NCBI RefSeq assembly: GCF_057098645.1 | Contig: NZ_CM169472.1 | Length of the DNA: 64,000 bases | Reading direction: 5' to 3' (one strand) | In this document: positions 24,984-46,986 of the stretch, piece after piece | Numbering within the stretch: the first letter of the stretch is position 1 | Layout: each line of letters starts with the position of its first letter | Notes under the pieces: model-generated | Database searches by the model: none | What the model was told of the DNA's origin: nothing | Seen by the model: only the letters and a program-made list of their open reading frames with translations | Made by a program: the position numbers and the translations under genes

Positions 24984-25941
24984 TTAACCTATCTCCTGTA
25001 ACGCATGTCTCTGGCGTTCGACGATATTGGTCCACAAATTGTCTTTATCGTCAGTCCACAAATTAATCAGCAAGGCAAAAAAGCGTTCAGCTGCCGGAGA
25101 AAGCACGGCATCTTTGCGGCGAATAATCCCCAATGTCCGACGTATAACGGGTTCCACCAGTGGGATACCAATAATCGAAGAATAGGGCGCATGGGGCATT
25201 GCCAGACCAGGAAGCGCTGAAATCCCCAGTCCTGCCTCCACCAGTCCTAATGACGTCGAAAGATGACGCACTTCGTAAAACCAGTCCAGCTTCCAGGGCT
25301 TGTCGGCTAGCTGTTGTTCTATCAACAGTCGGTTGCCGCTGGAGGAGCGTACGCCAATCATTTTGTAACCCACTAACTCCTGCCATTCTACAAGCTGCTT
25401 TTTGGCCAATGGATGAATTTGTGACGTTGTTCATGTTTATGCCAAAGTCTGATTCGTTACATAGCTCCGATTCCATGCAATTATTCGTGCCTTGTTCCAG
25501 AATCCGCACTTTAATATTGGGATACAGCTCATTAAATTTACCGATTGCCAGCGGTAAAAAATAAAATACTGCGGTCGGAATACACGCTAACGTCACCATA
25601 CCACGATGATAAGCATTCATATCACGAATATTAAAAAGCGTTTCATCGAATTTCTTTATTAATTCCCGCGCCTCCGGGAGCAACCTTTTTCCTGCTTTTG
25701 TTAACGTAACCTTGCGAGTTGTACGCTCAAATAGTTGAATATGTAAATCTTCCTCCATCTTTTTTATTCTTCGCGTTAATGCAGGTTGCGTAATGTTGAG
25801 TAATTTAGCGGCATTGTTAAATGAACTGGACTCTGCCAGTATGACAAATGCCTTCATACTTGATAATTCATGCTTCATTATTACTCCGGAAAATGGAAGC
25901 GTTGATTTTGGGTGGCTGGCCGTTAAAAATTTTAACTGCAT
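24984..25941 (-). pseudogene. ybhD: LysR-family regulator YbhD, apparently frameshifted at an A5 run
   Basis: N-terminal HTH half is in one frame (to about 25410) and the LysR C-terminal half is in the +1 frame (25409..24984); the switch coincides with the homopolymer at 25403-25407. Confidence 0.6.
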
Positions 25942-26061
25942 TTAGCCAACTTAAATTAATGAAAAAATGTTATTAATCGTTGAGCTAAAGTCATTAGAGA
26001 TGCTTTGCCCTTAATGTAACCATATCGCAATAAGTTATGTTTTTAAATTGAGGGCATTATT

Positions 26062-27114
26062 ATGAAAAAAATACCCTGCGTGATGATGCGAGGTGGAACC
26101 TCGAGGGGCGCGTTCCTGTTAGCGGAACATTTACCCGAAGATCAAACGCAGCGCGATAAAATATTGATGGCAATTATGGGTTCCGGTAACGATCTGGAAA
26201 TTGACGGTATTGGCGGCGGTAATCCACTGACCAGTAAAGTCGCCATTATAAGCCGTTCCAGCGATCCGCGTGCTGATGTTGATTATCTGTTTGCTCAAGT
26301 TATCGTCCATGAGCAACGTGTCGATACCACGCCTAACTGCGGCAATATGCTGTCTGGCGTTGGGGCATTCGCCATTGAAAATGGTTTGATTGCAGCGACT
26401 TCGCCAGTTACTCGCGTACGTATCCGCAACGTCAATACGGGTACGTTTATCGAAGCTGATGTGCAAACGCCAAATGGTGTAGTCGAGTACGAGGGTAGCG
26501 CCAGAATTGACGGCGTACCGGGTACTGCCGCACCGGTTGCACTCACTTTCCTGAATGCCGCTGGAACCAAAACCGGAAAAGTTTTCCCGACTGATAATCA
26601 GATTGATTATTTTGACGATGTCCCGGTGACCTGTATCGATATGGCGATGCCAGTCGTCATTATTCCGGCTGAATATCTGGGAAAAACAGGCTATGAATTA
26701 CCGGCGGAACTGGATGCCGACAAAGCATTATTAGCCCGCATTGAATCTATCCGTCTACAAGCGGGTAAAACAATGGGCTTAGGCGATGTCAGTAATATGG
26801 TTATCCCTAAACCTGTGCTTATTTCTCCAGCGCAGAAAGGCGGGGCAATTAATGTGCGTTATTTTATGCCGCATTCTTGCCATCGCGCGCTGGCGATAAC
26901 CGGTGCTATTGCTATTTCCAGTAGTTGTGCATTGGAAGGCACCGTCACCCGACAAATCGTCCCTTCTGTAGGATACGGCAATATCAATATTGAACACCCC
27001 AGTGGTGCGCTCGACGTTCATTTAAGTAATGAAGGTCAGGATGCCACGACGTTACGCGCATCTGTTATTCGGACAACCAGAAAAATATTTTCCGGTGAAG
27101 TTTATCTTCCCTGA
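26062..27114 (+). CDS. ybhH: YbhH, PrpF/AcnD-accessory-like isomerase family
   Basis: 350 aa, synteny ybhD-ybhH-ybhI. Confidence 0.8.
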   Translation: MKKIPCVMMRGGTSRGAFLLAEHLPEDQTQRDKILMAIMGSGNDLEIDGIGGGNPLTSKVAIISRSSDPRADVDYLFAQVIVHEQRVDTTPNCGNMLSGVGAFAIENGLIAATSPVTRVRIRNVNTGTFIEADVQTPNGVVEYEGSARIDGVPGTAAPVALTFLNAAGTKTGKVFPTDNQIDYFDDVPVTCIDMAMPVVIIPAEYLGKTGYELPAELDADKALLARIESIRLQAGKTMGLGDVSNMVIPKPVLISPAQKGGAINVRYFMPHSCHRALAITGAIAISSSCALEGTVTRQIVPSVGYGNINIEHPSGALDVHLSNEGQDATTLRASVIRTTRKIFSGEVYLP

Positions 27115-27189
27115 AAAAATTCGTTGTCAGGATAAGGACAATCAATAAAGGACTTCTGTATGAGTCATACAGAAAGAACAGGATTTTAA

Positions 27190-28623
27190 ATGAATAAGAA
27201 ATCGTTATGGAAGCTAATTCTGATATTAGCGATCCCATGTATTATTGGTTTTATGCCAGCTCCGGCAGGATTAAGCGAACTGGCGTGGGTGCTTTTTGGT
27301 ATTTACCTGGCGGCCATTGTGGGGCTGGTTATCAAGCCTTTCCCGGAACCTGTCGTACTGTTAATTGCTGTTGCTGCCTCCATGGTGGTGGTCGGTAACT
27401 TATCCGACGGTGCGTTTAAGACCACCGCCGTATTAAGCGGTTACTCTTCAGGTACCACCTGGCTGGTGTTCTCGGCGTTTACCTTAAGCGCCGCATTTGT
27501 GACCACCGGCTTAGGTAAACGTATTGCCTATTTGCTGATTGGTAAAATTGGTAGCACTACCCTGGGGCTGGGTTACGTTACGGTATTTCTCGATCTGGTA
27601 CTGGCTCCGGCAACACCGTCTAACACCGCGCGTGCGGGCGGCATTGTGTTACCGATCATCAACAGCGTGGCGGTGGCTTTGGGGTCCGAACCGGAAAAAA
27701 GTCCGCGTCGTGTCGGACATTACCTGATGATGTCCATTTACATGGTCACCAAAACCACCAGCTATATGTTCTTTACCGCAATGGCGGGGAACATTCTGGC
27801 GCTGAAAATGATCAACGACATTCTGCACCTGCAAATTAGCTGGGGGGGATGGGCGCTGGCCGCCGGATTGCCGGGCATCATTATGCTGCTGGTTACTCCG
27901 CTGGTGATTTACACCATGTATCCGCCAGAAATTAAGAAGGTGGATAATAAAACCATCGCCAAAGCGGGCCTTGCCGAACTGGGACCGATGAAAATCCGCG
28001 AAAAAATGCTGCTCGGTGTCTTTGTGCTGGCGCTGCTGGGCTGGATTTTCAGTAAGTCCCTGGGGGTTGATGAATCCACCGTGGCAATCGTTGTTATGGC
28101 GACCATGCTGCTGCTGGGTATCGTTACCTGGGAAGACGTGGTTAAAAATAAAGGCGGCTGGAATACCTTAATCTGGTACGGCGGTATTATCGGCTTAAGC
28201 TCCTTATTATCGAAAGTTAAATTCTTCGAATGGTTAGCTGAAGTCTTTAAAAATAACCTGGCATTTGATGGTCACGGTAACGTTGCTTTCTTCGTTATTA
28301 TTTTCCTCAGCATCATCGTGCGTTATTTCTTCGCTTCCGGTAGTGCCTATATCGTTGCCATGTTGCCGGTATTTGCCATGCTGGCGAACGTCTCCGGCGC
28401 ACCGTTAATGTTAACCGCGCTGGCACTGTTGTTCTCCAACTCCTATGGCGGCATGGTTACTCACTATGGCGGCGCGGCAGGTCCGGTCATCTTTGGCGTG
28501 GGTTACAACGATATTAAATCCTGGTGGTTGGTCGGTGCGGTACTGACGATATTAACCTTCCTGGTGCATATCACCCTCGGCGTGTGGTGGTGGAATATGC
28601 TGATCGGCTGGAACATGCTGTAA
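27190..28623 (+). CDS. ybhI: YbhI, DASS-family di/tricarboxylate transporter
   Basis: 477 aa polytopic membrane protein. Confidence 0.85.
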   Translation: MNKKSLWKLILILAIPCIIGFMPAPAGLSELAWVLFGIYLAAIVGLVIKPFPEPVVLLIAVAASMVVVGNLSDGAFKTTAVLSGYSSGTTWLVFSAFTLSAAFVTTGLGKRIAYLLIGKIGSTTLGLGYVTVFLDLVLAPATPSNTARAGGIVLPIINSVAVALGSEPEKSPRRVGHYLMMSIYMVTKTTSYMFFTAMAGNILALKMINDILHLQISWGGWALAAGLPGIIMLLVTPLVIYTMYPPEIKKVDNKTIAKAGLAELGPMKIREKMLLGVFVLALLGWIFSKSLGVDESTVAIVVMATMLLLGIVTWEDVVKNKGGWNTLIWYGGIIGLSSLLSKVKFFEWLAEVFKNNLAFDGHGNVAFFVIIFLSIIVRYFFASGSAYIVAMLPVFAMLANVSGAPLMLTALALLFSNSYGGMVTHYGGAAGPVIFGVGYNDIKSWWLVGAVLTILTFLVHITLGVWWWNMLIGWNML

Positions 28624-28805
28624 ATATACTCGTCATACTTCAAGTTGCATGTGCTGCGTCTGTGTTCGCTCACCCCAGTCACTTACTTATGTAAGTGACT
28701 GGGGATTCACTCGCTTGTCGCCTTCCTGCAACTCGAATTATTTAGAGTATATCCATTTATTATCTTTCTGCGCACTTCACGGTGCGCAGATATCTGGAGC
28801 ATTTG

Positions 28806-31067
28806 ATGATCAAGTTATCTGAAAAAGGCGTGTTTCTCGCCAGTAATAACGAAATAATTGCCGAAGAACATTTCACCGGCGAAATTAAAAAAGAAGAAGC
28901 CAAAAAAGGCACTATTGCCTGGTCTATTCTCTCTTCGCATAATACGTCCGGAAATATGGATAAACTTAAAATTAAGTTTGATTCATTAGCCTCTCACGAT
29001 ATTACCTTTGTTGGTATTGTACAGACCGCTAAAGCGTCCGGTATGAAACGTTTCCCGCTGCCGTATGTGCTGACCAACTGCCATAACTCACTCTGCGCCG
29101 TCGGTGGCACCATTAACGGTGATGACCATGTTTTTGGTTTATCGGCGGCTCAGCGTTATGGCGGTATTTTTGTGCCTCCGCACATTGCGGTCATCCATCA
29201 ATATATGCGTGAGATGATGGCAGGCGGTGGCAAAATGATCCTCGGGTCAGACAGCCACACCCGTTACGGTGCATTAGGGACAATGGCAGTCGGTGAGGGC
29301 GGCGGTGAGTTGGTAAAACAGCTGCTTAATGACACCTGGGATATCGACTATCCGGGAGTTGTTGCGGTGCATCTGACCGGAAAACCAGCGCCGTATGTGG
29401 GGCCGCAGGATGTGGCGTTGGCTATCATCGGTGCCGTGTTCAAAAACGGCTACGTCAAAAACAAAGTGATGGAATTCGTAGGTCCCGGTGTTGCTGCGCT
29501 CTCTACCGATTTCCGTAACAGCGTTGACGTTATGACCACTGAAACGACCTGTTTAAGTTCTGTCTGGCAAACCGATGAAGAAGTCCATAACTGGCTGGCG
29601 CTGCACGGTCGCGGCCAGGATTACTGCCAGCTTAACCCTCAACCGATGGCGTACTACGATGGCTGCATCAGCGTTGATTTAAGCGCCATCAAACCAATGA
29701 TTGCGCTGCCGTTCCACCCGAGCAACGTGTATGAAATCGACACGCTGAACCAGAACCTGACCGACATTCTACGTGAGATTGAAATTGAGTCCGAGCGCGT
29801 GGCGCACGGTAAAGCCAAACTCTCGCTGCTGGATAAAGTGGAAAATGGCCGCCTGAAAGTGCAGCAGGGGATTATCGCGGGCTGTTCTGGCGGTAACTAC
29901 GAAAACGTTATCGCGGCGGCGAATGCACTGCGCGGTCAATCCTGTGGCAATGACACCTTCTCGCTGGCGGTTTACCCGTCATCACAGCCGGTGTTTATGG
30001 ATTTAGCCAAAAAAGGTGTGGTAGCAGATTTGATTGGCGCAGGCGCAATTATCAGAACCGCGTTCTGTGGCCCATGCTTTGGCGCGGGCGATACGCCAAT
30101 CAACAACGGTTTGAGTATTCGCCACACCACGCGTAACTTCCCGAACCGCGAAGGCTCTAAGCCAGCTAATGGGCAGATGTCAGCGGTGGCGTTGATGGAC
30201 GCTCGTTCTATCGCTGCGACTGCGGCAAACGGTGGCTATTTAACCTCTGCCAGCGAACTCGATTGCTGGGACAACGTGCCGGAGTACGCCTTCGATGTAA
30301 CGCCGTATAAAAATCGCGTCTATCAAGGCTTTGTGAAAGGGGCGACCCAGCAACCGCTGATTTACGGACCGAACATTAAAGACTGGCCGGAATTGGGTGC
30401 GCTGACTGACAATATCGTCCTCAAAGTGTGCTCGAAGATCCTCGACGAAGTGACCACCACCGACGAATTGATTCCTTCCGGTGAAACCTCTTCTTATCGT
30501 TCAAATCCGATTGGTCTGGCGGAGTTTACCCTGTCTCGCCGTGATCCCGGTTATGTTGGCAGAAGTAAAGCGACTGCTGAGCTGGAAAATCAGCGTCTGG
30601 CGGGGAATGTCAGCGAGCTGACAGAGGTGTTTGCGCGCATTAAGCAGATTGCTGGTCAGGAGCATATTGATCCGCTGCAAACTGAAATTGGCAGCATGGT
30701 CTATGCGGTGAAACCAGGCGATGGTTCTGCGCGTGAACAGGCGGCGAGCTGCCAGCGTGTGATTGGCGGTCTGGCGAATATTGCCGAGGAGTACGCGACT
30801 AAACGCTACCGTTCTAACGTCATCAACTGGGGGATGTTACCTTTGCAGATGGCGGAAGTGCCAACCTTTGAAGTGGGGGATTACATTTACATCCCTGGTA
30901 TTAAAGCGGCGCTGGATAATCCGGGTACGACGTTTAAAGGTTATGTGATCCATGAAGATGCGCCGGTAACGGAAATTACGCTCTATATGGAAAGTCTGAC
31001 TGCTGAAGAGCGCGAGATTATCAAGGCGGGTAGTTTGATTAACTTCAATAAAAACCGTCAGATGTAA
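28806..31067 (+). CDS. ybhJ: YbhJ, aconitase-family protein
   Basis: [23 protein letters not shown]..., aconitase-like cysteine ligands (GSDSHT, CGPCFG). Confidence 0.85.
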
Positions 31068-31077
31068 AAAGCACCAT

Positions 31078-31191
<114 letters not shown>

Positions 31192-31207
31192 AAATAGTTA
31201 ATAGCTC

Positions 31208-32491
31208 TTACTTCTTCGCCTCTGCAACCACTTTGCTACCCACGCCGCGGTTATTGTATTCCCACATGCGGTTGTAGTTAGTGTCATTCAGATTGCGCTG
31301 TATTTCGTCGCTATCGTCAACGCTGCCGGTATTACCCGCAAACGGACGATTAGAGCTCACCGCATCGGCCCATGGTTTAGCCGTGTTAAAACCTTCGTTG
31401 ATGGCGCTATCACGGATCACCACCTGACCGTTGGTATTGGCATCAACATCCAGCGAGCGGCCCATTTGTGCCACGCCATCACCGGAAGCATTGAAACGGC
31501 TGTTTACGGCGAGGAAACCGTAGTAAATGTTGGACAGCGTAGCCGGTGCAAACACATACGCTTCTTGCTGAGTACGTGAGTTCACCACGCGGAATTCGGT
31601 GTTATCGAACACCACTGCGCCGCGACCAGAAACGATATCCACATCCCCTTCAATGTAGCTGTTGGTCACCAGCGTACGCGGCTGACGATTCGTTTCCAGA
31701 CGGTTCTGCACACCGCTGTTGGTGACAAAGAAGGTGTTCTGACGACCGAGAATGTTAACGTTGTTAATCTGTACCTGGTCACCGTCAGTACGCAGTGCCA
31801 CCGCCGGATGGTTACCTGCATCTACGCTATCGCCCAGCGTGTTTTCGATGGTCAGATTTTGCAGTTGCAGGCCATTGTTTTGTGACCAGAAGACCGCAGA
31901 ACAGAGAACACCGATACTGTCGCTGCGTTTGCTCTGGCAGCTATCGTACATATACCACGCTGGTTTACCTGGCATATATTTGCCGCGCGGGTTGACGTCG
32001 TGACGCCAGTCGGCAGGGCTCATGCCCCCATCAAGGGAAAGCCCAATCTTCACATCAATCGGTTTTTCACCTGTACCGTACAGAGTAATTCCACCTGGAG
32101 CAGCAGGGACATACACCGTTCCCTGATACTCACCAGGCATCACGGCAATATACTGGCGCTTGTTGGTACGCTTGATAATTGCCGCATCTACCGCCGCCTG
32201 AATCGTGGTATGCGTTACACCTTGAGTACCCGCCGGGCCGACAACAAAGTCAGGTTGCGCAGGCAGGGTTATCGGGGACGGATTCCACGCTGCAGCACCT
32301 GGTGTCAGGGATGCAAAATAGTGTTGCGCATCGAAATTCTGCGCTTCTTTTGCCGACAGAATCGGGCGAGAAGAGGTACCAGGCGCAGTTTGATCAGAAG
32401 GACGTTGATCGGGTGGTGTTGAGCTACAGGCGGTCAGCGTCACGCCAAAAGCCAATGCCAGCGCCAGACGGGAAACTGAAAATGTGTTCAC
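31208..32491 (-). CDS. ybhC: YbhC, outer-membrane lipoprotein with pectinesterase-like beta-helix
   Basis: 427 aa, lipobox LTAC; last host gene before the lambda attachment site. Confidence 0.9.
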   Translation of the reverse strand: MNTFSVSRLALALAFGVTLTACSSTPPDQRPSDQTAPGTSSRPILSAKEAQNFDAQHYFASLTPGAAAWNPSPITLPAQPDFVVGPAGTQGVTHTTIQAAVDAAIIKRTNKRQYIAVMPGEYQGTVYVPAAPGGITLYGTGEKPIDVKIGLSLDGGMSPADWRHDVNPRGKYMPGKPAWYMYDSCQSKRSDSIGVLCSAVFWSQNNGLQLQNLTIENTLGDSVDAGNHPAVALRTDGDQVQINNVNILGRQNTFFVTNSGVQNRLETNRQPRTLVTNSYIEGDVDIVSGRGAVVFDNTEFRVVNSRTQQEAYVFAPATLSNIYYGFLAVNSRFNASGDGVAQMGRSLDVDANTNGQVVIRDSAINEGFNTAKPWADAVSSNRPFAGNTGSVDDSDEIQRNLNDTNYNRMWEYNNRGVGSKVVAEAKK

Positions 32492-32537
32492 AGGTTGCTC
32501 CGGGCTATGAAATAGAAAAATGAATCCGTTGAAGCCT

Positions 32538-32552
32538 GCTTTTTTATACTAA
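32538..32552. other. attL: Lambda attachment core (attL) at the chromosome/prophage junction
   Basis: GCTTTTTTATACTAA core followed by the lambda P-prime arm (AGTTGGCATTATAAAAAAGCATTGCTTATCAATTTGTTGCAACGAACAGGTCACTATCAGTC). Confidence 0.85.
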
Positions 32553-32625
32553 GTTGGCATTATAAAAAAGCATTGCTTATCAATTTGTTGCAACGAACAG
32601 GTCACTATCAGTCAAAATAAAATCA

Positions 32626-33696
32626 TTATTTGATTTCAATTTTGTCCCACTCCCTGCCTCTGTCATCACGATACTGTGATGCCATGGTGTCCGACTTATG
32701 CCCGAGAAGATGTTGAGCAAACTTATCGCTTATCTGCTTCTCATAGAGTCTTGCAGACAAACTGCGCAACTCGTGAAAGGTAGGCGGATCCCCTTCGAAG
32801 GAAAGACCTGATGCTTTTCGTGCGCGCATAAAATACCTTGATACTGTGCCGGATGAAAGCGGTTCACGACGAGTAGATGCAATTATGGTTTCTCCGCCAA
32901 GAATCTCTTTGCATTTATCAAGTGTTTCCTTCATTGATATCCCGAGAGCATCAACATGCAATGTTGTAGGGATGGCAATTTTTACGCCTGTTTTGCTTTG
33001 TTCGACATAAAGATATCCATCTACGATATCAGACCACTTCATTTCGCATAAATCACCAACTCGCTGCCCGGTAACAACAGCCAGTTCCATTGCAAGTCTG
33101 AGCCAACATGGTGATGATTCTGCTGCTTGATAAATTTTCAGGTATTCGTCAGCCGTAAGTCTTGATCTCCTTACCTCTGATTTTGCTGCGCGAGTGGCAG
33201 CGACCGGGTTTGTTGTTATATGGCCTTCAGCTATTGCCTCTCGGAATGCATCGCTCAGTGTTGATCTGATTAACTTGGCTGACGCCGCCTTGCCCTCGTC
33301 TATGTATCCATTGAGCATTGCCGCAATTTCTTTTGTGGTGATGTCTTCAAGTGGAGCATCAGGCAGCCCCCTCCTTATTGCTTTAATTTTGCTCATGTAA
33401 TTTATGAGTGTCTTCTGCTTGATTCCTCTGCTGGCGAGGATTTTTTCGTAGCGATCAAGCCATGAATGTAACGTAACAGAATTATCACTGTTGATTCTCG
33501 CTGTCAGAGGCTTGTGTTTGTGTCCTGAAAATAACTCAATATTGGCCTGTATTGCTTCAGTGATTGCTATCCTCCTGTCTCGGCCTAAACCAAACTCTTT
33601 ACCCGTCCTTGGGTCCCTGTAGCAGTAATATCCATTGTTTCTTATATAAAGGTTAGGGGGTAAATCCCGGCGCTCATGACTTCGCCTTCTTCCCAT
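32626..33696 (-). CDS. int: Lambda integrase
   Basis: 356 aa, MGRRRSHERRDLPPNLYIRNNGYYCYRDPRTGKEFGLGRDRRIAITEAIQ..., matches recalled lambda Int. Confidence 0.97.
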   Translation of the reverse strand: MGRRRSHERRDLPPNLYIRNNGYYCYRDPRTGKEFGLGRDRRIAITEAIQANIELFSGHKHKPLTARINSDNSVTLHSWLDRYEKILASRGIKQKTLINYMSKIKAIRRGLPDAPLEDITTKEIAAMLNGYIDEGKAASAKLIRSTLSDAFREAIAEGHITTNPVAATRAAKSEVRRSRLTADEYLKIYQAAESSPCWLRLAMELAVVTGQRVGDLCEMKWSDIVDGYLYVEQSKTGVKIAIPTTLHVDALGISMKETLDKCKEILGGETIIASTRREPLSSGTVSRYFMRARKASGLSFEGDPPTFHELRSLSARLYEKQISDKFAQHLLGHKSDTMASQYRDDRGREWDKIEIK

Positions 33697-33892
33697 TTCT
33701 GATCCTCTTCAAAAGGCTACCTGTTACTGGTCGATTTAAGTCAACCTTTACCGCTGATTCGTGGAACAGATACTCTCTTCCATCCTTAACCGGAGGAGGG
33801 AATATCCTGCATTCGCGCACCCATCGACGAACTGTTTCAAGGCTTCTTGGGCGTCGCTGGCGTGCGTTCCACTCCTGAAGTGTCAAGTACAT
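33674..33892 (-). CDS. xis: Lambda excisionase
   Basis: 72 aa, MYLTLQEWNARQRRPRSLETVRRWVRECRIFPPPVKDGREYLFHESAVKVDLNRP... Confidence 0.95.
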   Translation of the reverse strand: MYLTLQEWNARQRRPRSLETVRRWVRECRIFPPPVKDGREYLFHESAVKVDLNRPVTGSLLKRIRNGKKAKS

Positions 33893-33918
33893 CGCAAAGT
33901 CTCCGCAATTACACGCAA

Positions 33919-33940
33919 GAAAAAGCCGCCATCAGGCGGC
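33919..33940 (-). terminator. Intrinsic terminator for leftward transcription near orf55/xis
   Basis: On the minus strand gccgcc-tgat-ggcggc followed by TTTTT. Confidence 0.5.
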
Positions 33941-34099
33941 TTGGTGTTCTTTCAGTTCTTCAATTCGAATATTGGTTATGTCTGCATGTGCTATCTGCGC
34001 CCATATCATCCAGTGGTCATAGCAGTCATTGATGTTCTCTGCTTCGATAACTCTGTTGAATGGTTCTCCATTCCATTCACCTGTGACTCGGAAGTGCAT
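33932..34099 (-). CDS. Lambda orf55-like small protein
   Basis: 55-aa ORF MHFRVTGEWNGEPFNRVIEAENINDCYDHWMIWAQIAHADITNIRIEELKEHQAA, below the ORF-track cutoff. Confidence 0.7.
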   Translation of the reverse strand: MHFRVTGEWNGEPFNRVIEAENINDCYDHWMIWAQIAHADITNIRIEELKEHQAA

Positions 34100-34341
34100 T
34101 TATCATCTCCATAAAACAAAACCCGCCGTAGCGAGTTCAGATAAAAGAAATCCTCGTCAGTGCGAGGATGCTGTTCATTGCTGCTATACACTTTTTTGCT
34201 CTCAACGTAAGCGGTAGCTCATTCTGTTGGGTTGGTGCAGTTGCTTTTAGGAAATGCTATTTACCCCTTAAACGTCGGCTGAAAGAGCTAAAATCCATGC
34301 AAAAAATTTACGCAATTTTGTGTATTATTGTGCAGTAAGTA

Positions 34342-34944
34342 ATGAGCTATTTTCTGCGCAAAAAATGGATGGTAAATTTGTCCGGGGCAGGAAAAATTTT
34401 ATGGGCGCTAAACATGAAAAAAGATTCGTATCCTTATTTGATTTGCATGACAGTTTCAGGCCTGATCTTTATTTTCCTTTTCTTCTGGTGGCGGGCAGAT
34501 ATTTACAGGGTCACGTTTCTTAATCAGAGTATATCCCACTATTACATTCTGTTTAGCATGGGAATAGCTTTTCTGTTATCTCTGTTTTGGGTTAAGAAGG
34601 GGATAGTAAAACAAAGCGGCTGGAAGAGTCTGTCAGCATACCTTAAGGTTTATGCAGGGATGTGCATATTTGCTGGATTTTTTCTGATTATACCCCTTAC
34701 AACACTAACTTATTTTTTGCCTGGAGAGACATCGTCTTATGTTGCACCGTATCGGTATACTTCCGGTAGTTCAAAAAGTTGTTCTGGAGCTGAGGTGGAT
34801 GACCCCGATCTACATGAGAATATTCGCATTTGCTATCCGTATGGCAATTATGAGTACGATAATATTATCTATGTTGAAAAGAAAATTAATACATTAGGTG
34901 CGGTAGTAACATATGCACAGACCGCGCGTGATGATACTGAATGA
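34342..34944 (+). CDS. Hypothetical membrane protein (3-4 predicted TM helices plus C-terminal soluble domain); start uncertain
   Basis: 200-aa ORF, visibly AT-rich, opposite strand to the pL operon, occupying the lambda ea8.5/ea22 slot. Confidence 0.5.
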   Translation: MSYFLRKKWMVNLSGAGKILWALNMKKDSYPYLICMTVSGLIFIFLFFWWRADIYRVTFLNQSISHYYILFSMGIAFLLSLFWVKKGIVKQSGWKSLSAYLKVYAGMCIFAGFFLIIPLTTLTYFLPGETSSYVAPYRYTSGSSKSCSGAEVDDPDLHENIRICYPYGNYEYDNIIYVEKKINTLGAVVTYAQTARDDTE

Positions 34945-35154
34945 GATAGTATATAGCGGGCAAGTTTTAGTTAATTTATCGAGGTAATATAATTTACCTC
35001 GACTCGTTTATTCTGGTATTAATATTTCGCTTTACGATCGATTTTTATCTGATGATATCATGCGGTTTTCATATACTGACTTACTGTCTTTTCTCCGTTA
35101 GCGATTTTCTCCTGCTCAGCGATGATTTTATCTTTGGCTTCTAGTTAATTTCGC

Positions 35155-35376
35155 TCACTTCGAACCTCTCTGTTTACTGATAAGTTCCAGATCCTCCTGG
35201 CAACTTGCACAAGTCCGACAACCCTGAACGGCCAGGCGTCTTCGCTCATCTATGGGATCGCCACACTCACAACAATGAGTGGCAGATATAGCCTGGTGGT
35301 TCAGGCGGCGCATTTTTATTGCTGTGTTGCGCTGTAATTCTTCAATTTCTGATGCTGAATCAATGATGTCTGCCAT
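35155..35376 (-). CDS. TraR/DksA-family C4 zinc-finger protein
   Basis: 73 aa, CxxC-x17-CxxC (HCCECGDPIDERRRLAVQGCRTCASCQ). Confidence 0.75.
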   Translation of the reverse strand: MADIIDSASEIEELQRNTAIKMRRLNHQAISATHCCECGDPIDERRRLAVQGCRTCASCQEDLELISKQRGSK

Positions 35377-35474
35377 CTTCCATTAATCCCTGAATTGTTG
35401 GTTAATACGCTTGAGGGTGAATGCGAACAATAAAAAAGGAGCCTGTAGCTCCCTGATGATTTTGCTTTTCATGC

Positions 35475-35690
35475 TCACCGTTCCTTAAAGACGCCGTTTA
35501 ACATGCCGATCGCCAGGCTTAAATGAGTCGGTGTGAATCCCATCAGCGTTACCGTTTCGCGGTGCTTCTTCAGTACGCTACGGCAAATGTCATCGACGTT
35601 TTTATCCGGAAACTGCTGTCTGGCTTTTTTGATTTCAGAATTAGCCTGACGGGCAATACTGCGAAGGGCGTTTTCTTGCTGAGGTGTCAT
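35475..35690 (-). CDS. Hypothetical small protein (71 aa from MTPQQENALRSIARQ...)
   Basis: ORF in the pL operon between the TraR-like gene and orf63. Confidence 0.5.
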   Translation of the reverse strand: MTPQQENALRSIARQANSEIKKARQQFPDKNVDDICRSVLKKHRETVTLMGFTPTHLSLAIGMLNGVFKER

Positions 35691-35766
35691 TGAACAAGTC
35701 CCATGTCGGCAAGCATAAGCACACAGAATATGAAGCCCGCTGCCAGAAAAATGCATTCAGTGGTTG

Positions 35767-35958
35767 TCATACCAGGTCTCTCTCATCTGCTTCTGCTTTC
35801 GCCACCATCATTTCCAGCTTTTGCGAAAGGGATGTGGCTAACGTATGAAATTCTTCGTCTGTTTCTACTGGTATTGGCACAAACCTGACTCCAATTTGAG
35901 CAAGGCTATGTGCCATCTCAATACTCGTTCTTAACTCAACAGGAGATGCTTTGTGCAT
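35767..35958 (-). CDS. Lambda orf63-like protein
   Basis: 63 aa, position upstream of orf60a/exo as in lambda. Confidence 0.55.
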   Translation of the reverse strand: MHKASPVELRTSIEMAHSLAQIGVRFVPIPVETDEEFHTLATSLSQKLEMMVAKAEADERDLV

Positions 35959-36113
35959 ATCGCCTCCCGTTTATTATTTATCTCCTCAGCCAGCCGCTGG
36001 GCTTTCAGCGGATTTCGGATAACAGAAAGGCCGGGAAATACCCAGCCTCGCTTCGTAACGGAGTAGACGAAAGTGATCGTGCCTACGCGGATATTATCGT
36101 GAGGATGCTTCAT
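35931..36113 (-). CDS. Lambda orf60a-like protein
   Basis: 60 aa from [24 protein letters not shown]..., immediately upstream of exo. Confidence 0.55.
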
Positions 36114-36790
36114 CGCCATTGCTCCCCAAATACAAAACCAATTTCAGCCAGTGCCTCGTCCATTTTTTCGATGAACTCCGGCACCATCTCGTCAAAACCC
36201 GCCATGTACTTTTCATCCCGCTCAACCACGACATAATGCAGGCCTTCACGCTTCATACGCGGGTCATAGTTGGCAAAGTACCAGGCATCTTTTCGCGTCA
36301 CCCACATGCTGTACTGCACCTGGGCCATGTAAGCCGACTTTATGGCCTCGAAACCACCGAGCCTGAACTTCATGAAATCCCGGGAGGTAAACGGGCATTT
36401 CAGCTCAAGGCCGTTGCCGTCACTGCATAAACCATCGGGAGAGCAGGCGGTGCGCATACTTTCGTCGCGATAGATGATCGGGGATTCAGTAACATTCACG
36501 CCGGAAGTGAATTCAAACAGGGTTCTGGCGTCGTTCTCGTACTGTTTTCCCCAGGCCAGCGCCTTAGCATTAACTTCCGGAGCCACACCGGTGCAAACCT
36601 CAGCCAGCAGGGTGTGGAAGTAGGACATTTTCATGTCAGGCCACTTCTTTCCTGAGCGGGGCTTTGCTATCACGTTGTGAACTTCTGAAGCGGTGATGAC
36701 GCCGAGCCGTAATTTGTGCCATGCATCATCCCCCTGTTCGACAGCTCTCACGTCGATCCCGGTACGCTGCAGGATAATGTCCGGTGTCAT
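36110..36790 (-). CDS. exo: Lambda exonuclease (Red-alpha)
   Basis: 226 aa, [58 protein letters not shown]... Confidence 0.95.
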
Positions 36791-37572
36791 GCTGCCACCT
36801 TCTGCTCAGTGGCTTTCTGTTTCAGGAATCCAAGAGCTTTCACTGCTTCGGCCTGTGTCAGTTCTGACGATGCGCGAATGTCGCGGCGAAATATCTGGGA
36901 ACAGAGCGGCAATAAGTCGTCATCCCATGTTTTATCCAGGGCGATTAGCAGAGTGTTAATCTCCTGCATGGTTTCATCGTTAACCGGAGTGATGTCGCGT
37001 TCCGGCTGGCGTTCTGCAGTGTATGCAGTATTTTCGACAATGCGCTCGGCTTCATCCTTGTCATAGATACCAGCAAATCCGAAGGCCAGACGGGCACACT
37101 GAATCATGGCTTTATGCCGTAACATCCGTTTAGGATGCGACTGCCACGGCCCCGTGATTTCTCTGCCTTCGCGGGTTTTGAATGGTTCGCGGCGGCATTC
37201 ATCCATCCATTCGGTAACGCAGATCGGATGATTACGGTCCTTGCGGTAAATCCGGCATGTACAGGATTCATTGTCCTGCTCAAAGTCCATGCCATCAAAC
37301 TGCTGGTTTTCATTGATGATGCGGGACCAGCCATCAACGCCCACCACCGGAACGATGCCGTTCTGCTTATCAGGGAAGGCGTAAATTTCTTTCGTCCACG
37401 GATTAAGGCCGTACTGGTTGGCGACGATCAACAATGCGATGAACTGCGCATCGCTGGCATCGCCTTTAAATGCCGTCTGGCGAAGAGTGGTGATCAGTTC
37501 CTGTGGGTCGACAGAATCCATGCCGACACGTTCAGCCAGCTTCCCTGCCAGCGTTGCGAGTGCTGTACTCAT
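36787..37572 (-). CDS. bet: Lambda Bet (Red-beta) single-strand annealing protein
   Basis: 261 aa, [59 protein letters not shown]... Confidence 0.95.
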
Positions 37573-37577
37573 CCGTT

Positions 37578-37994
37578 TTATACCTCTGAATCAATATCAA
37601 CCTGATGGTGAGCAATGGTTTCAACCATGTACCGGATGTGTTCTGCCATGCGCTCCTGAAACTCAACATCGTCATCAAACGCACGGGTAATGGCTTTTTT
37701 GCTGGCCCCGTGGCGTTGCAAATGACCGATGCATAGCGATTCAAACAGGTGCTGGGGCAGGCCTTTTTCCATGTCGTCTGCCAGTTCTGCCTCTTTCTCT
37801 TCACGGGCTATCTGCTGGTAGTGACGCGCCCAGCTCTGAGCCTCAAGACGATCCTGAATGTAATAAGCGTTCATGGCCGAACTCCTGAAATAGCTGTGAA
37901 AATATCGCCCGCGAAATGCCGGGCTGATTAGGAAAACAGGAAAGGGGGTTAGTGAATGCTTTTGCTTGATCTCAGTTTCAGTATTAATATCCAT
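37578..37994 (-). CDS. gam: Lambda Gam (RecBCD inhibitor)
   Basis: 138 aa, [61 protein letters not shown]... Confidence 0.95.
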
Positions 37995-38092
37995 TTTTTA
38001 TAAGCGTCGACGGCCTCACGAAACATCTTTTCATCGCCAATAAAAGTGGCGATAGTGAATTTAGTCTGGATAGCCATAATTGTTTGATCCAT
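37949..38092 (-). CDS. kil: Lambda Kil (FtsZ inhibitor)
   Basis: 47 aa, [47 protein letters not shown]. Confidence 0.85.
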
Positions 38093-38225
38093 TTTTTGGG
38101 ACTCCTGGCTGATTAAGTATGTCGATAAGGCGTTTCCATCCGTCACGTAATTTACGGGTGATTCGTTCAAGTAAAGATTCGGAAGGGCAGCCAGCAACAG
38201 GCCACCCTGCAATGGCATATTGCAT
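38061..38225 (-). CDS. cIII: Lambda cIII (FtsH inhibitor)
   Basis: 54-aa ORF beginning MQYAIAGWPVAGCPSESLLER, overlapping kil by 32 nt as in lambda; below the ORF-track cutoff. Confidence 0.85.
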   Translation of the reverse strand: MQYAIAGWPVAGCPSESLLERITRKLRDGWKRLIDILNQPGVPKNGSNNYGYPD

Positions 38226-38297
38226 GGTGTGCTCCTTATTTATACATAACGAAAAACGCCTCGAGTGAAGCGTAATTGGTATGCGGTAACGCCGCGC

Positions 38298-38666
38298 TCA
38301 GGCGGCCTTGATAGTCATATCATCTGAATCAAATATTTCTGATGTATCGATATCGGTAATTCTTATTCCTTCACTACCATCCATTGGAGGCCATCCTTCC
38401 TGACCATTTCCATCATTCCAGTCGAACTCACACACAACACCATATGCATTTAAGTCGCTTGAAATTGCTATAAGCAGAGCATGTTGCGCCAGCATGATTA
38501 ATACAGCATTTAATACAGAGCCGTGTTTATTGAGTCGGTATTCAGAGTCTGACCAGAAATTATTAATCTGGTGAAGTTTTTCCTCTGTCATTACGTCATG
38601 GTCGATTTCAATTTCTATTGATGCTTTCCAGTCGTAATCAATGATGTATTTTTTGATGTTTGACAT
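38298..38666 (-). CDS. ea10: Lambda Ea10-like protein
   Basis: 122 aa, MSNIKKYIIDYDWKASIEIEIDHDVMTEEKLHQINNFWSDSEYRL... Confidence 0.8.
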   Translation of the reverse strand: MSNIKKYIIDYDWKASIEIEIDHDVMTEEKLHQINNFWSDSEYRLNKHGSVLNAVLIMLAQHALLIAISSDLNAYGVVCEFDWNDGNGQEGWPPMDGSEGIRITDIDTSEIFDSDDMTIKAA

Positions 38667-38685
38667 CTGTTCATATCCTCACAGA

Positions 38686-38712
38686 TAAAAAATCGCCCTC
38701 ATCTTGGAGGGC
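38686..38712 (-). terminator. Intrinsic terminator in the pL operon, upstream of ea10
   Basis: Minus strand gccctc-caagat-gagggc followed by gATTTTTT. Confidence 0.55.
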
Positions 38713-38854
38713 AAAGAAGATTTCCAATAATCAGAACAAGTCGGCTCCTGTTTAGTTACGAGCGACATTGCTCCGTGTATTCACTCGTTGGAATGAATAC
38801 ACAGCGCTGTGTTTATTCTGTTGTTTGCGTGAAAATGAAATCCGCCTGAGCGGG

Positions 38855-39736
38855 TTATGACCACTTTTTGTTTGGGTTTCGTTGGTGAGCGTGGTTTACA
38901 GGATTATTTGATATACCCCATAACTCTGACTCGCTTATCTCTACACGAGAGAAAGACCTGCTTTCTTTCAGTTCTTTTATAAACCTAGAACCTAAGATGA
39001 CATCTATTGTACCAGAAAGTTCTTGTAAAAGATCTTTGTTTTTTCTGAGGAAGAAAATATCTTCTTTATATTTAATTTTTACATAGAATTTATTCTGTAT
39101 TTTTAATATATCAAAGCATGGCAGATATCTATATCCCTCATATTTTCGCCACTGCTTAACAATTATAACATCTTTTTCATTTACTGCATTAATCAGCCCA
39201 AGACCAAGTACAGGTATGAATATTCTATTGTCTGCCGAAAGCGTACAATTATCACCACCAGGCAAATATGTATAAATCATGTCGGAATTTTTATACGCAT
39301 CAACGAATGCACGTAAGAAGCGTACATATTTTTGCCATCCGTTTATACCGAATTTACCATATAAGTATTCTTTATTTGTTAGAAGAAAACTATTTGTATC
39401 AGGATCCTTATCTACAGACCTGTCGATAAGATCTCCAACTACGTTTACAAAGTCAAAGACAGAGTTTAATAAGAACAATTGTCTTTCAGTAGGGCGAATT
39501 TCAATTATGTAGCCAGGATGAAGACGATATTGCATCTGCTTACGAAGTATACCGAACGCTTGGGTCCGAGCATCTGAAAGCAACTTCTTGTCGCCATCGC
39601 CGTGAGCATTGTTTCTAATAAAACTGATATAATTTGCTAATTTTTCAGCCTCTTTTTTGTGTTTTTTTCGCTCTGATGCTGAGTCTATTGGTTTTGGTAT
39701 GGACTTGTAATCAATCTTCTTCATTACGTACCTCAT
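38855..39736 (-). CDS. Uncharacterised 293-aa protein translationally coupled to N (lambda ral/sieB slot)
   Basis: Start ATG overlaps the N stop (ATGA), visibly AT-rich, lambda ral/sieB absent at this position; no motif I can assign. Confidence 0.6.
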   Translation of the reverse strand: MRYVMKKIDYKSIPKPIDSASERKKHKKEAEKLANYISFIRNNAHGDGDKKLLSDARTQAFGILRKQMQYRLHPGYIIEIRPTERQLFLLNSVFDFVNVVGDLIDRSVDKDPDTNSFLLTNKEYLYGKFGINGWQKYVRFLRAFVDAYKNSDMIYTYLPGGDNCTLSADNRIFIPVLGLGLINAVNEKDVIIVKQWRKYEGYRYLPCFDILKIQNKFYVKIKYKEDIFFLRKNKDLLQELSGTIDVILGSRFIKELKESRSFSRVEISESELWGISNNPVNHAHQRNPNKKWS

Positions 39737-40056
39737 GCCAATGGAATGGATTCCCCTTTAACCTTTTGTCTTCCTTGACAAGTTATACCGAACTCACCTG
39801 GCTTGCTATACCAAACTCGATGATTCTTGCGCTCAATACGTTGCAGGTTGCTTTCAATCTGTTCGTGGTATTCAGCCAGCACCGTAAGGTCTATCGGATT
39901 CAGTGCGCTTTCTACTCGTGATTTCGGTTTGCGATTCAGCGAGAGAATAGGGCGGTTAACTGGTTTAGCGCTTACCCCAACCAACAGGGGATTTGCTGCT
40001 TTCCATTGAGCCTGTTTCTCTGCGCGACGTTCGCGGCGGCGTGTTTGTGCATCCAT
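39733..40056 (-). CDS. N: Lambda antiterminator N
   Basis: 107 aa, MDAQTRRRERRAEKQAQWKAANPLLVGVSAKPVNRPILSLNRKPKSRVESALNPIDLTVLAEYH... Confidence 0.9.
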   Translation of the reverse strand: MDAQTRRRERRAEKQAQWKAANPLLVGVSAKPVNRPILSLNRKPKSRVESALNPIDLTVLAEYHEQIESNLQRIERKNHRVWYSKPGEFGITCQGRQKVKGESIPLA

Positions 40057-40213
40057 CTGGATTCTCCTGTCAGTTAGCTTTGGTTGTGTGTGGGAGTCGT
40101 AGTCCTGAACGAAAACACCCCGCAATGGCACATTGGCAGCTAATCCGGATTCGCACTTCCGGCCAATGCTTCGTTTCGTATCACACACACCAAAGCCTTC
40201 TGCTTTGAATGCT

Positions 40214-40228
40214 GCCCTTCTTCAGGGC
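40214..40228 (-). promoter_or_regulatory. nutL boxB hairpin
   Basis: Minus-strand GCCCTGAAGAAGGGC, the lambda boxB sequence, between pL and N. Confidence 0.65.
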
Positions 40229-40279
40229 TTAATTTTTAAGAGCCTCACCTTCAATGGTGGTCAGTGCGTCCTGCTGATG

Positions 40280-40348
40280 GCTTAAAATTACAAGGAAGAT
40301 TGTATGTTGTAAACAAGAAATATTGTAAAAAAGGGACGTGAAAAACAA
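40280..40348 (-). promoter_or_regulatory. 434-type left operators (OL1-OL3) with the pL promoter
   Basis: Three 14-bp ACAA-N6-TTGT sites: ACAAGGAAGATTGT, ACAAGAAATATTGT, ACAAACTCCATTGT. Confidence 0.7.
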
Positions 40349-40408
40349 ACTCCATTGTTTTTAAACGGAAAATAGTTTGTTTTTTTGTTATCGAGATTGA
40401 GGTGGGGA

Positions 40409-41454
<1,046 letters not shown>

Positions 41455-41473
41455 TTATTTACCCCCAATCTTC

Positions 41474-41532
41474 ACAAGAAAAACTGTATTTGACAAACAA
41501 GATACATTGTATGAAAATACAAGAAAGTTTGT
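41474..41532. promoter_or_regulatory. 434-type right operators OR3-OR2-OR1 with pRM/pR
   Basis: ACAAGAAAAACTGT (41474-41487), ACAAGATACATTGT (41497-41510), ACAAGAAAGTTTGT (41519-41532). Confidence 0.8.
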
Positions 41533-41545
41533 TGATGGAGGCGAT

Positions 41546-41575
41546 ATGCAAACTCTTTCTGAACGCCTCAAGAAG
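41546..41575 (+). pseudogene. cro: 434-type cro truncated after codon 10 by an IS insertion
   Basis: ATG CAA ACT CTT TCT GAA CGC CTC AAG AAG (MQTLSERLKK) runs directly into the IS terminal repeat TGAACCGCCCC. Confidence 0.75.
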
Positions 41576-41617
41576 TGAACCGCCCCGGGTTTCCTGGAGA
41601 GTATTTTATCTGTGAAC

Positions 41618-42508
41618 TCAGGCTGCCAGATCATTATTTCCGATGGAAGCATAATAAGCTTTTTCTGCTTCTGCCGGAGGAATATGGCCCAGCCTTTCCA
41701 GCAATCGTCGATTGTTATACCAGTCCACCCACGTGAGTGTGGCCAGTTCCACTTCTGCACGGTTTTTCCAGCTCTTACGGTGTATTACCTCCGCTTTGTA
41801 AAGACCATTGATGCTCTCCGCCATCGCGTTGTCATACGAGTCGCCAGTACTCCCTGTTGATGCCAGTAATCCGGCTTCCTTAAGCCGCTGCGTGTAGGCC
41901 AGCGATACATACTGAGAACCTTTATCACTGTGATGGATTGTGCCGGACGGCCGACGGGCCCACAACGCCTGCTCCAGTGCATCCAGCACGAATGTTGTTT
42001 CCATGGATGATGAGACCTGCCATCCCACGATGTATCCGGCGAACACATCAATGATGAACGCCACATAAACGAAGCCCCGCCATGTGCTGACGTAAGTAAA
42101 ATCAGCCACCCACAGCTGGTCAGGTCGTTCTGCCACGAACTGACGGTTTACGCGGTCGCCTGCGGCAACGGCTTTCCGGCTGATGGTCGTACGGACCTTT
42201 TTACCCCGGAGAACACCGGCAAGTCCCATAACTGCCATGAGACGTGCCACAGTGCATCTGGCCACTCTGATACCTTCCCGTAACAACTGACGCCAGACTT
42301 TACGCACACCGTATACCTGGTGATTTTCATCGTATACGCGCTGTATCTCTTTCTTCAGCCAGTCATCGTGCTGCGCACGGGCACTGCGTTTATCCGGATG
42401 ATGTCGCTGTTGCTGACAGTGGTAATACGTTGACGGGGCAATATGCAGTTCGCTGCATAGCGGTCCGACCCCGTACTGCTCACGCAGCTTATCCAGCAGT
42501 GGCATCAT
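41618..42508 (-). CDS. IS629-like transposase OrfB (DDE/integrase domain)
   Basis: 296-aa ORF with IS3-family DDE region ([10 protein letters not shown]...[11 protein letters not shown]). Confidence 0.85.
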
Positions 42509-42831
42509 TTTTTCCAGAGGCGGTCGAACTCCGCCTTCGCAAAATAAGCGGAAGCCTGGCGAAGGATATCGTTACTGCGGCGCAGTTCACGATTTTCACG
42601 CTCCAGCTCTTTCAGACGCTGACGTTCAGCGGTGGTGAGCCCGCCATCACCGCCCCCGGTATCCCGCTCATGCTGGCGAACCCAGACACGCAGAGTCTCC
42701 GGCGTACAGCCAATCTTTGGAGCAATGGAACAAATTGTCGCCCATTGTGAGTCATATTCATCCTGACTTTCCAGAACCATACGAATCGCCCGCTGACGGA
42801 CTTCGGGGGAAAAACGAGTATTTTTAGTCAT
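42505..42831 (-). CDS. IS629-like transposase OrfA (HTH)
   Basis: 108 aa, [50 protein letters not shown]... Confidence 0.85.
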
Positions 42832-42885
42832 CCTGTTTACCTCTTTCTCAGGGAGTTTAGTCTCCAGGATTTCCGGGGCGGTTCA

Positions 42886-43265
42886 ACCAGCCAGAAAACG
42901 ACCTTTCTGTGGTGAAACCTGATGCTGCATGGGGGACAGCAGAAGACCTGACCGCCGCAGAGTGGATGTTTGACATGGTGAAGACTATCGCGCCATCAGC
43001 CAGAAAACCGAATTTTGCAGGGTGGGCTAACGATATCCGCCTGATGCGTGAACGTGACGGACGTAACCACCGCGATATGTGTGTGCTGTTCCGCTGGGCC
43101 TGCCAGGACAACTTCTGGTCCGGTAATGTGCTGAGCCCGGCCAAACTCCGCGACAAGTGGACCCAGCTCGAAATCAACCGTAACAAGCAACAGGCAGTCG
43201 TGACAGCCAGCAAACCAAAACTCGACCTGACAAACACAGACTGGATTTACGGGGTGGATTTATGA
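42886..43265 (+). pseudogene. O: Lambda O replication initiator, C-terminal fragment only
   Basis: ...WGTAEDLTAAEWMFDMVKTIAPSARKPNFAGWANDIRLMRERDGRNHRDMCVLFRW...TDWIYGVDL; begins at the IS boundary. Confidence 0.8.
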
Positions 43266-43963
43266 AAAACATCGCCGCACAGATGGTTAACTTTGACCGT
43301 GAGCAGATGCGTCGGATCGCCAACAACATGCCGGAACAGTACGACGAAAAGCCTCAGGTACAGCAGGTAGCGCAGATCATCAACGGTGTGTTCAGCCAGT
43401 TACTGGCAACTTTCCCGGCGAGCCTGGCTAACCGTGACCAGAACGAACTGAACGAAATCCGCCGCCAGTGGGTTCTGGCTTTCCGGGAAAACGGGATCAC
43501 CACAATGGAACAGGTTAACGCAGGAATGCGCGTAGCCCGTCGGCAGAATCGACCATTTCTGCCATCACCCGGGCAGTTTGTTGCATGGTGCCGGGAAGAA
43601 GCATCCGTTATCGCCGGACTGCCAAACGTCAGCGAGCTGGTTGATATGGTTTACGAGTATTGCCGGAAGCGAGGCCTGTATCCGGATGCGGAGTCTTATC
43701 CGTGGAAATCAAACGCGCACTACTGGCTGGTTACCAACCTGTATCAGAACATGCGGGCCAATGCGCTTACTGATGCGGAATTACGGCGCAAGGCTGCCGA
43801 TGAACTGTCCTGTATGACCGCACGAATTAACCGTGGTGAGGCTATACCTGAACCAGTAAAACAACTTCCTGTCATGGGCGGTAGACCTCTAAATCGTGCA
43901 CAGGCTCTGGCGAAGATCGCAGAAATCAAAGCTAAGTTTGGGCTGAAAGGAGCAAGTGTATGA
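43262..43963 (+). CDS. P: Lambda P (DnaB helicase loader)
   Basis: 233 aa, MKNIAAQMVNFDREQMRRIANNMPEQYDEKPQVQQVAQIINGVFSQLLATFPASLANRDQNELNEIRRQW... Confidence 0.95.
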   Translation: MKNIAAQMVNFDREQMRRIANNMPEQYDEKPQVQQVAQIINGVFSQLLATFPASLANRDQNELNEIRRQWVLAFRENGITTMEQVNAGMRVARRQNRPFLPSPGQFVAWCREEASVIAGLPNVSELVDMVYEYCRKRGLYPDAESYPWKSNAHYWLVTNLYQNMRANALTDAELRRKAADELSCMTARINRGEAIPEPVKQLPVMGGRPLNRAQALAKIAEIKAKFGLKGASV

Positions 43964-44250
43964 CGGGCAAAGAGGCAATTATTCATTACCTGGGGACGCA
44001 TAATAGCTTCTGTGCGCCGGACGTTGCCGCGTTAACAGGCGCAACAGTAACCAGCATAAATCAGGCCGCGGCTAAAATGGCACGGGCAGGTCTTCTGGTT
44101 ATCGAAGGTAAGGTCTGGCGAACGGTGTATTACCGGTTCGCTACTAGGGAAGAACGGGAAGGAAAGATGAGCACGAACCTGATTTTTAAGGAGTGTCGCC
44201 AGAGTGCCGCGATGAAACGGGTATTGGCGGTATATGGAGTTAAAAGATGA
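43960..44250 (+). CDS. ren: Lambda Ren
   Basis: 96 aa, MTGKEAIIHYLGTHNSFCAPDVAALTGATVTSINQAAAKMARAGLLVIEGKVWRTVYYRF... Confidence 0.9.
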   Translation: MTGKEAIIHYLGTHNSFCAPDVAALTGATVTSINQAAAKMARAGLLVIEGKVWRTVYYRFATREEREGKMSTNLIFKECRQSAAMKRVLAVYGVKR

Positions 44251-44323
44251 CCATCTACATCACTGAGCTAATAACAGGCCTGCTGGTAATCGCAGGCCTT
44301 TTTATTTGGGGGAGAGGGAAGTC

Positions 44324-46900: not shown

Positions 46901-46986
46901 GACTCGAAAGCGTAGCTAAATTTCATTCGCCAAAAAGCCCGATGATGAGCGACTCACTACTGGCCATAGTTTATTGGTTTTCGTAA
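46897..46986 (+). pseudogene. Q: Lambda Q antiterminator, N-terminal stub only
   Basis: [20 protein letters not shown] matches the start of lambda Q, then diverges and stops after 29 codons. Confidence 0.7.

Follow-up and report, generated by a model that had tools for sequence, protein, structure and literature searches.

The window, i.e. the whole 64-kb stretch of DNA that was analysed, carries host chromosomal DNA with the gene ybhC on its left and prophage DNA beginning with int and xis on its right, and the segment under study (32492–32625) spans exactly the gap from the ybhC start codon to the int stop codon. The junction was compared with the unoccupied attB of E. coli K-12 MG1655, with lambda attP and with the attP of phage 434, and Int and IHF sites were located by pattern search, using the definitions of core-type, arm-type and IHF sites in the classical lambda att literature. 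The following features were assigned at and around the junction:

31208–32491, minus strand: ybhC, 427 aa, start codon toward attL (ORF list; annotated in K-12 and three relatives, collinear)
32492–32537: host B-arm DNA, 46 nt, from the ybhC start codon to the core, matching the left flank of K-12 attB
32536–32544: core-type Int site B, CTGCTTTTT (pattern position)
32538–32552, plus strand: common core of attL, the same core as in K-12 attB, lambda attP and 434 attP
32543–32549: 7-bp overlap for strand exchange, TTTATAC, within the 15-bp core
32548–32556: core-type Int site C', CAACTTAGT on the bottom strand (pattern position)
32578–32590, plus strand: IHF site H', TATCAATTTGTTG (fits WATCAANNNNTTR), identical to lambda
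32599–32608, plus strand: arm-type Int site P'1, identical to lambda
32609–32618, plus strand: arm-type Int site P'2, identical to lambda
32620–32629, plus strand: arm-type Int site P'3, overlapping the int stop codon, identical to lambda
32626–33696, minus strand: int, tyrosine integrase, 356 aa (ORF list, protein comparison)
33674–33892, minus strand: xis, excisionase, 72 aa

The 15-bp core GCTTTTTTATACTAA, which an earlier note on this DNA had already pointed out, was found as the sole exact copy in the window (32538–32552, plus strand), and exact copies occurred in 0 of 100 dinucleotide-preserving shuffles. To its left, 45 of 45 nt of the B arm were identical to K-12 MG1655 attB, and over 300 nt the left flank matched K-12 at 294 positions, the 6 differences all lying at least 121 nt from the core, inside ybhC. 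To its right, the core and the following 145 nt were identical to lambda attP/P' without exception (160/160), with all known P'-arm elements present at lambda spacing. Judged by its sequence, the segment 32492–32625 is a canonical lambda-type B-O-P' attL at the classical E. coli attB. The intact attL that the earlier note had claimed for the classical lambda site is therefore confirmed, core, B arm, P' arm, int and xis all being present.

Immediately right of the core, the 434 record (OL657226.1, 25031–25037) reads GTAGGCC, whereas lambda and the window (32553–32559) read GTTGGCA, and the C' core-type Int site contains the first of these differences. Since the window has GTTGGCA and not GTAGGCC, its att region was assigned to the lambda type, the rest of the early region being of the 434 type.

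Int of the window agreed with lambda Int at 353 of 356 residues (substitutions H164P, A245T and I248V) and with 434 Int at all but one, and the catalytic residues R212, K235, H308, R311, H333 and Y342 were all present. Xis was identical to that of 434 and differed from lambda Xis only by G59S (71/72). Both genes are full length, int followed by xis, and int lies directly beyond the P' arm, as had been claimed. In lambda, Int bridges arm-type and core-type sites while IHF bends the DNA at H', strands are exchanged in the 7-bp overlap, and excision requires Xis together with an attR partner bearing the P arm. The attL side, int and xis are intact in sequence, and from this identity we infer that they would be competent for excision.

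On the host side, the placement of attL downstream of ybhC in the earlier note was wrong: ybhC is encoded on the minus strand, with the same layout in K-12, so that attL is on its upstream side, 46 nt before the start codon. Both int and ybhC are oriented on the minus strand; a terminator scan around the window attL and K-12 attB yielded none, and hence none between int and ybhC, and a promoter scan around the same two regions gave one weak promoter-like site, no more than in shuffles. With this co-orientation and no predicted terminator, read-through from the prophage into ybhC is conceivable. The host backbone in the first 24 kb of the window was 100% identical to several O145:H28 STEC genomes, and by this sequence the host is of the O145:H28 type or lineage.

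Further host features lie upstream of the prophage, namely a CpoB/ybgF thermometer (5145–5283) and seven tRNA genes (Lys-Val-Lys-Val-Lys-Lys-Lys) with an RtT element (6210–7011) in a normal tol-pal/lysT-valT region, this tRNA cluster being the source of the only internal repeat of the window that is not an IS. The K-12 ybhJ–ybhC intergenic region aligned twice to window positions 31091–31192 (~100 bp) and is 92 bp longer in K-12; K-12 and the window strain differ here in how many copies of a short intergenic repeat they have. A 237-bp IS629 fragment interrupts ybhH in one of the relatives, Z1323HEC0399 (L001 4663–4898); the window is uninterrupted there (~26656).

The prophage DNA was assigned by comparison with phage 434. 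Over the first 20 kb of the prophage the best phage match was 434 (99.8% identity over 93% of the query), and lambda covered 47%. Local BLAST gave the following collinear segments (window coordinates first):

32538–33929: att, int and xis; 434 25016–26406
33920–41575: early-left region to the start of cro; 434 26838–34492
42929–52720: 3' part of O to the esterase gene; 434 35687–45470
57936–59038: lysis genes; 434 45468–46570
60134–60707, plus strand: right end of the 434-like vegetative map, to cos; 434 47420–47993 (end of the linear record), 99.1%

The genes and sites recognised within and beyond these segments were:

33932–40056, minus strand: mainly the pL operon, with exo, bet, gam, kil, cIII, ea10, a protein with the Nun C-terminal peptide, and N; 98–100% to 434
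34168–34941, plus strand: two 434 membrane-protein genes inside the pL span (tblastn against 434)
40412–41442, minus strand: the 434 immunity genes hex and cI (tblastn; 434 annotation)
41474–41575, plus strand: oR3–oR1 with pRM/pR and the first 10 codons of cro, collinear with 434 34391–34492, no mismatches
43262–50650, plus strand: P, ren, ninB, adenine methyltransferase, ninE/F/G, phosphatase, ylcG, Q and downstream membrane proteins; 100% to 434 proteins
47112–48071, minus strand: lpxR; 100% to the 434 protein
58222–59359, plus strand: lysis genes for holin, endolysin and a spanin-like protein (ORF list; annotation of relatives)
60903–64000, plus strand: head genes for small and large terminase, head-tail joining protein and the start of the portal protein, cut by the window end (annotation of relatives)

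From Int through cI, 20 of 21 434 proteins were found at full length with 98–100% identity (tblastn), the exception being CPT_434_33, and the 210-aa cI repressor was 100% identical to 434 cI. The gene of CPT_434_33 (hypothetical) is gone with a stretch of ~430 bp (434 26407–26837) between xis and the next small ORF (window 33920–33930), and the same stretch is absent from the O145:H28 relatives. Compared with the 434 record, oL2 showed one substitution (window 40317) followed by a 1-bp insertion (40327), and a further substitution lies between oL2 and oL3 (40336); the remaining 434 operators, pL, nutL, pRM and pR were identical to 434. An Rfam match to the lambda cIII thermoregulator was obtained at 38180–38238.

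The head proteins Nu1, A, W and B shared 40–66% protein identity with 434, and megablast of the head genes against 434 returned no match; since these proteins beyond cos are only 40–66% identical to 434, the element was classed as a mosaic lambdoid prophage. The lysis and head region (57334–64000) was 1.0–1.6% divergent from the relatives' prophages, compared with 0.03–0.1% in the early region. The sequence comparison suggests that recombination with another lambdoid prophage replaced the late region. The lambda character that the earlier note gave to the P' arm and int thus holds for the att/int type; the element as a whole is not lambda and has a 434 early/immunity region with 100% cI and non-434 head genes.

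Among 5426 complete E. coli genomes, attL-type junctions were found in 1911, attR-type junctions in 1919 and an empty attB in 3488, i.e. the site is occupied in about one third of sequenced strains. Were the junction a chance or secondary-site match, or the result of contamination with, or a chimera of, laboratory lambda, the 160-nt identity to lambda over core and P' arm would be the one point in its favour; such an origin is of practically negligible probability, given B-arm and P'-arm flanks that are exact over hundreds of bases, an identical junction in many independent complete genomes, and an element that is phage 434-like, not lambda, in a pathogenic O145:H28 backbone.

Several lesions were located inside the window:

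41576–42885, minus strand: IS629/IS1203-like element of the IS3 family, replacing the rest of cro, cII, approximately the first 167 codons of O and the ori iterons
42886–43265, plus strand: 3' remnant of the replication gene O, ~residues 168–299 (the last ~132) (tblastn)
50707–52556, plus strand: SASA-family esterase gene, frameshifted (ORFs 50707–51336 and 51219–52556)
52721–57935: nested IS block of 5.2 kb with three IS, between the esterase and holin genes
52721–53379 and 57334–57935: outer IS3-family element, TSD AGC
53380–54196 and 56835–57333: middle IS629-like element, inside the outer IS, TSD GCT
54197–56834: inner IS21-family element, inside the IS629-like one, istA/istB on the minus strand, TSD CTTCGT

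The first of these elements is bordered by cro codon 10 on one side and ~O codon 168 on the other, 434 ~34493–35625 being replaced. No target site duplication was found around it, which indicates an IS-associated deletion. 434 cII gave no tblastn match in the window, and the four 434 ori iterons had no counterpart anywhere in the window, even with up to 3 mismatches allowed. Of the 434-immunity traits, cI and oR are kept, and cro (after codon 10) and cII are lost. The cro::IS junction was absent from the 5426 complete genomes, in which two matches were obtained in split form only, and the right half of the window was covered to at most 91% by any one genome.

IS lesions in gene O are also found in the O145:H28 strains RM12761 and RM13514, at other positions than in the window; because these positions differ, the replication region was struck by independent events in different strains. 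A single ancestral IS in gene O with differing adjacent deletions was considered and rejected, as junction position, orientation and IS variant (97.5% identity) all differ from RM12761 and RM13514. The IS at 41576–42885, which contains an ALIL pseudoknot (Rfam, 42434–42550), is 96–98% identical to the second IS629-like copy of the window, in opposite orientation, and this second copy (53380–54196 and 56835–57333) is 100% identical to the relatives' copies.

The Rfam model isrC (Hfq-binding sRNA) matched at full length with 150 bits at 57745–57867 on the minus strand; the match coincides with IS sequence, namely the orfA end of the outer IS3-family element. In the esterase gene, the frameshift is due to the loss of 1 bp from a G-run (G6 to G5, ~51305–51309), which has G6 in 434 and in three relatives; the change may be genuine or may be a sequencing error in the homopolymer. 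Its interpretation as an ISEc20 scar was discarded, since RM13514 has ISEc20 beside the same run yet retains the full G6.

The prophage is defective: it has no origin and neither cro (beyond codon 10) nor cII, and its late operon is interrupted. The kept lysogeny/excision module comprises attL, int, xis, N, cI, oR and pL/oL, the last with the small oL2 changes. Under the reading implicit in the earlier note, the prophage would be lambda-like, complete and inducible, and its right half would simply lie beyond the window; intact attL, int, xis, N, cI, P, Q, lysis and terminase genes are in keeping with this. Such a prophage is very improbable in view of a cro gene cut after codon 10, an absent cII, an O protein reduced to ~its last 132 residues, the lack of iterons, the 5.2-kb IS nest between Q and the lysis genes, and the absence of tail genes (FII to J) from all three relatives. 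The earlier note had also let the distinction between remnant and full prophage hinge on attR, which did not prove to be the case, as the window alone reveals the defects in cro, cII, O and the iterons, the IS nest and the frameshift.

That the right end lies beyond the window had been stated correctly. The window contains no second core, no P arm (of the lambda, 434 or relatives' type) and no ybhB/bio sequence, and ends inside the open portal gene. A search for a second core with up to 2 mismatches in the 64 kb gave a single match at 53300–53314, which was rejected as a degenerate attR, since it belongs to an IS3-family transposase ORF and has neither P arm nor B' nearby. Three relatives (RM13514, RM12761 and Z1323HEC0399), all with an attL identical to that of the window, were read end to end for an attR of the form P-O-B', and an attR with exact core adjoining ybhB was found in 3/3. 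The prophage measures 35.8 kb in RM13514 and 43.2 kb in RM12761; all three relatives have one and the same deletion, which begins in FI, reaches the 3' end of J and leaves them without tail genes (FII to J), and in all three nleH, cif and espJ lie beside attR. IS lesions differ among the relatives and between them and the window, which argues for ongoing, strain-specific decay.

The right boundary of the prophage (attR and the last ~13 kb or more past the window) is predicted here by analogy with the relatives only. An attR that is intact in the source strain, where it would be expected to read ...CGTTCA GCTTTTTTATACTAA CTTGAGCGAAACGGG... and then ybhB and bioA, is likely on this basis, since 3/3 relatives are exact, since 24 of 25 genomes with a 100% attL match, among the matches listed, also appear among the 45 listed attR matches, and since the junction counts are near-equal. 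Even with such an attR, the prophage would not be a full one. A one-ended remnant, in which attL and part of the prophage persist, the right end with attR has been lost by deletion or rearrangement and the site never recombines, would be compatible with an attR outside the window, with the IS-mediated inversions and deletions found inside the prophage in this lineage, and with RM9154-C1, where attL and attR stand on opposite strands. This reading is improbable, as it is opposed by the same overlap of 24 of 25 listed attL genomes with the listed attR matches, by the nearly equal totals of 1911 and 1919, and by the 31.5 kb of collinear prophage that the window holds up to the portal gene.

In RM9154-C1 (NZ_CP031353.1, O145), the attL match is on the minus strand (845239–845739) and the attR match on the plus strand (871735–872075), which implies an inverted segment that has one of its ends within the prophage. 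In the relatives' attR P arm (L006 37551–37740, L007 44076–44276), the lambda P2 position reads ATAGTTACTA and not ATAGTGACTG; the latter is present at the P2 arm-type site of both lambda and 434, so that the relatives carry two changes, and P1, H1, the X1 region and H2 look conserved. The P2 arm-type Int site is needed for lambda excision. The two P2 changes might weaken excision in this prophage lineage.

Taken together, the attL was in all probability left by Int-mediated integration of a lambdoid phage of the lambda int type at the ybhC–ybhB/bioA attB of an O145:H28-lineage strain, in which the element now resides as a defective prophage. The integrating phage would have combined an att/int/xis module common to lambda and 434 with a 434 early/immunity region and different head genes. 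If lambda biology is applied to these identical sites, Int would have acted on B, C' and P'1–P'3 with an IHF bend at H' and strand exchange in TTTATAC, and the same attL would, with Xis and an attR partner, serve as the excision substrate. cI434 would still repress pL and pR and give 434 immunity, and from the intact cI434 immunity to 434-immunity phages is predicted. SOS cleavage of cI would allow expression of N, then of xis and int, and excision would probably be possible. Lytic growth would be blocked by the IS-associated deletion of cro, cII, the N-terminal part of O and the origin, and by IS in the late operon, and the lack of tail genes in close relatives would be a further bar. As neither replication nor virions would follow, the excised circle would be lost, so that induction would at most cure the element.

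Compared with lambda attL in a K-12 lysogen, the window shares the attB, the 15-bp core and the P' arm (160 nt with C', H' and P'1–P'3), with Int at 353/356 and Xis at 71/72, and is distinguished by 434 immunity, by lpxR and esterase as cargo, by other head genes and by an O145:H28-type host. With phage 434 (OL657226.1), it has the regions Int–cI and P–esterase in common (99.8% DNA identity), as well as the att core, cI (100%), an identical Xis and an Int one residue off; 434 itself bears T3SS-effector genes beside attP. Unlike 434, the window has a lambda-type C', lacks CPT_434_33, cro, cII, the 5' part of O and ori, and has Nu1, A, W and B at 40–66% identity. The degraded nleH-cif-espJ prophage of O145:H28 strains RM13514 and RM12761 is alike in its identical attL and int, head genes of 98–99% identity and IS-driven decay, and the early region of RM12761 is 99.97% identical to the window over 10 kb. 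RM13514 has lost int, xis and the whole pL operon, all of which are kept in the window, whereas RM12761 has kept cro and cII, which are lost in the window, and in both strains gene O is joined to another IS variant, at a different position and in a different orientation.

The site itself is well documented. The ybhC/ybhB locus is the integration site of Sp3 in O157:H7 Sakai (PMC8190617), a likeness with the window which, as taken from this literature, concerns the integration site only, and of prophages in EDL933 and UMN026 and of a Stx1a phage (PMC4551483). Defective, IS-ridden, effector-carrying lambda-like prophages are typical of O145:H28 (PMC8112680); our literature search for a published description of an O145:H28 prophage at ybhC gave this general context and not the present locus. 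An attL at the classical lambda/434 site is already known, and nothing found here departs from known biology.

Beyond annotation the finding matters little: it establishes where, at the best-studied integration site in biology, the prophage has its left end. Its added value is a corrected annotation, that of a defective 434-like element, as is typical of EHEC/EPEC genomes, whose attL is upstream of ybhC. In practice the junction can be used reliably to delimit the prophage, and the strain-specific IS lesions could serve typing or phylogeny within the O145:H28 lineage. It is conceivable, though rather doubtful, that the window copy is the least-decayed survivor of the nleH-cif-espJ prophage of this lineage, which would then be a former 434-immunity phage. 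As attL, int, xis, N, cI and the Red module are intact, though cro and ori are gone, such an element could still be excised upon SOS induction, or recombination with lambdoid or Stx phages resident in the same host could rescue or mobilise it. If so, it would not be inert DNA: it would move effectors as a cassette and pass on 434 immunity and Red functions.
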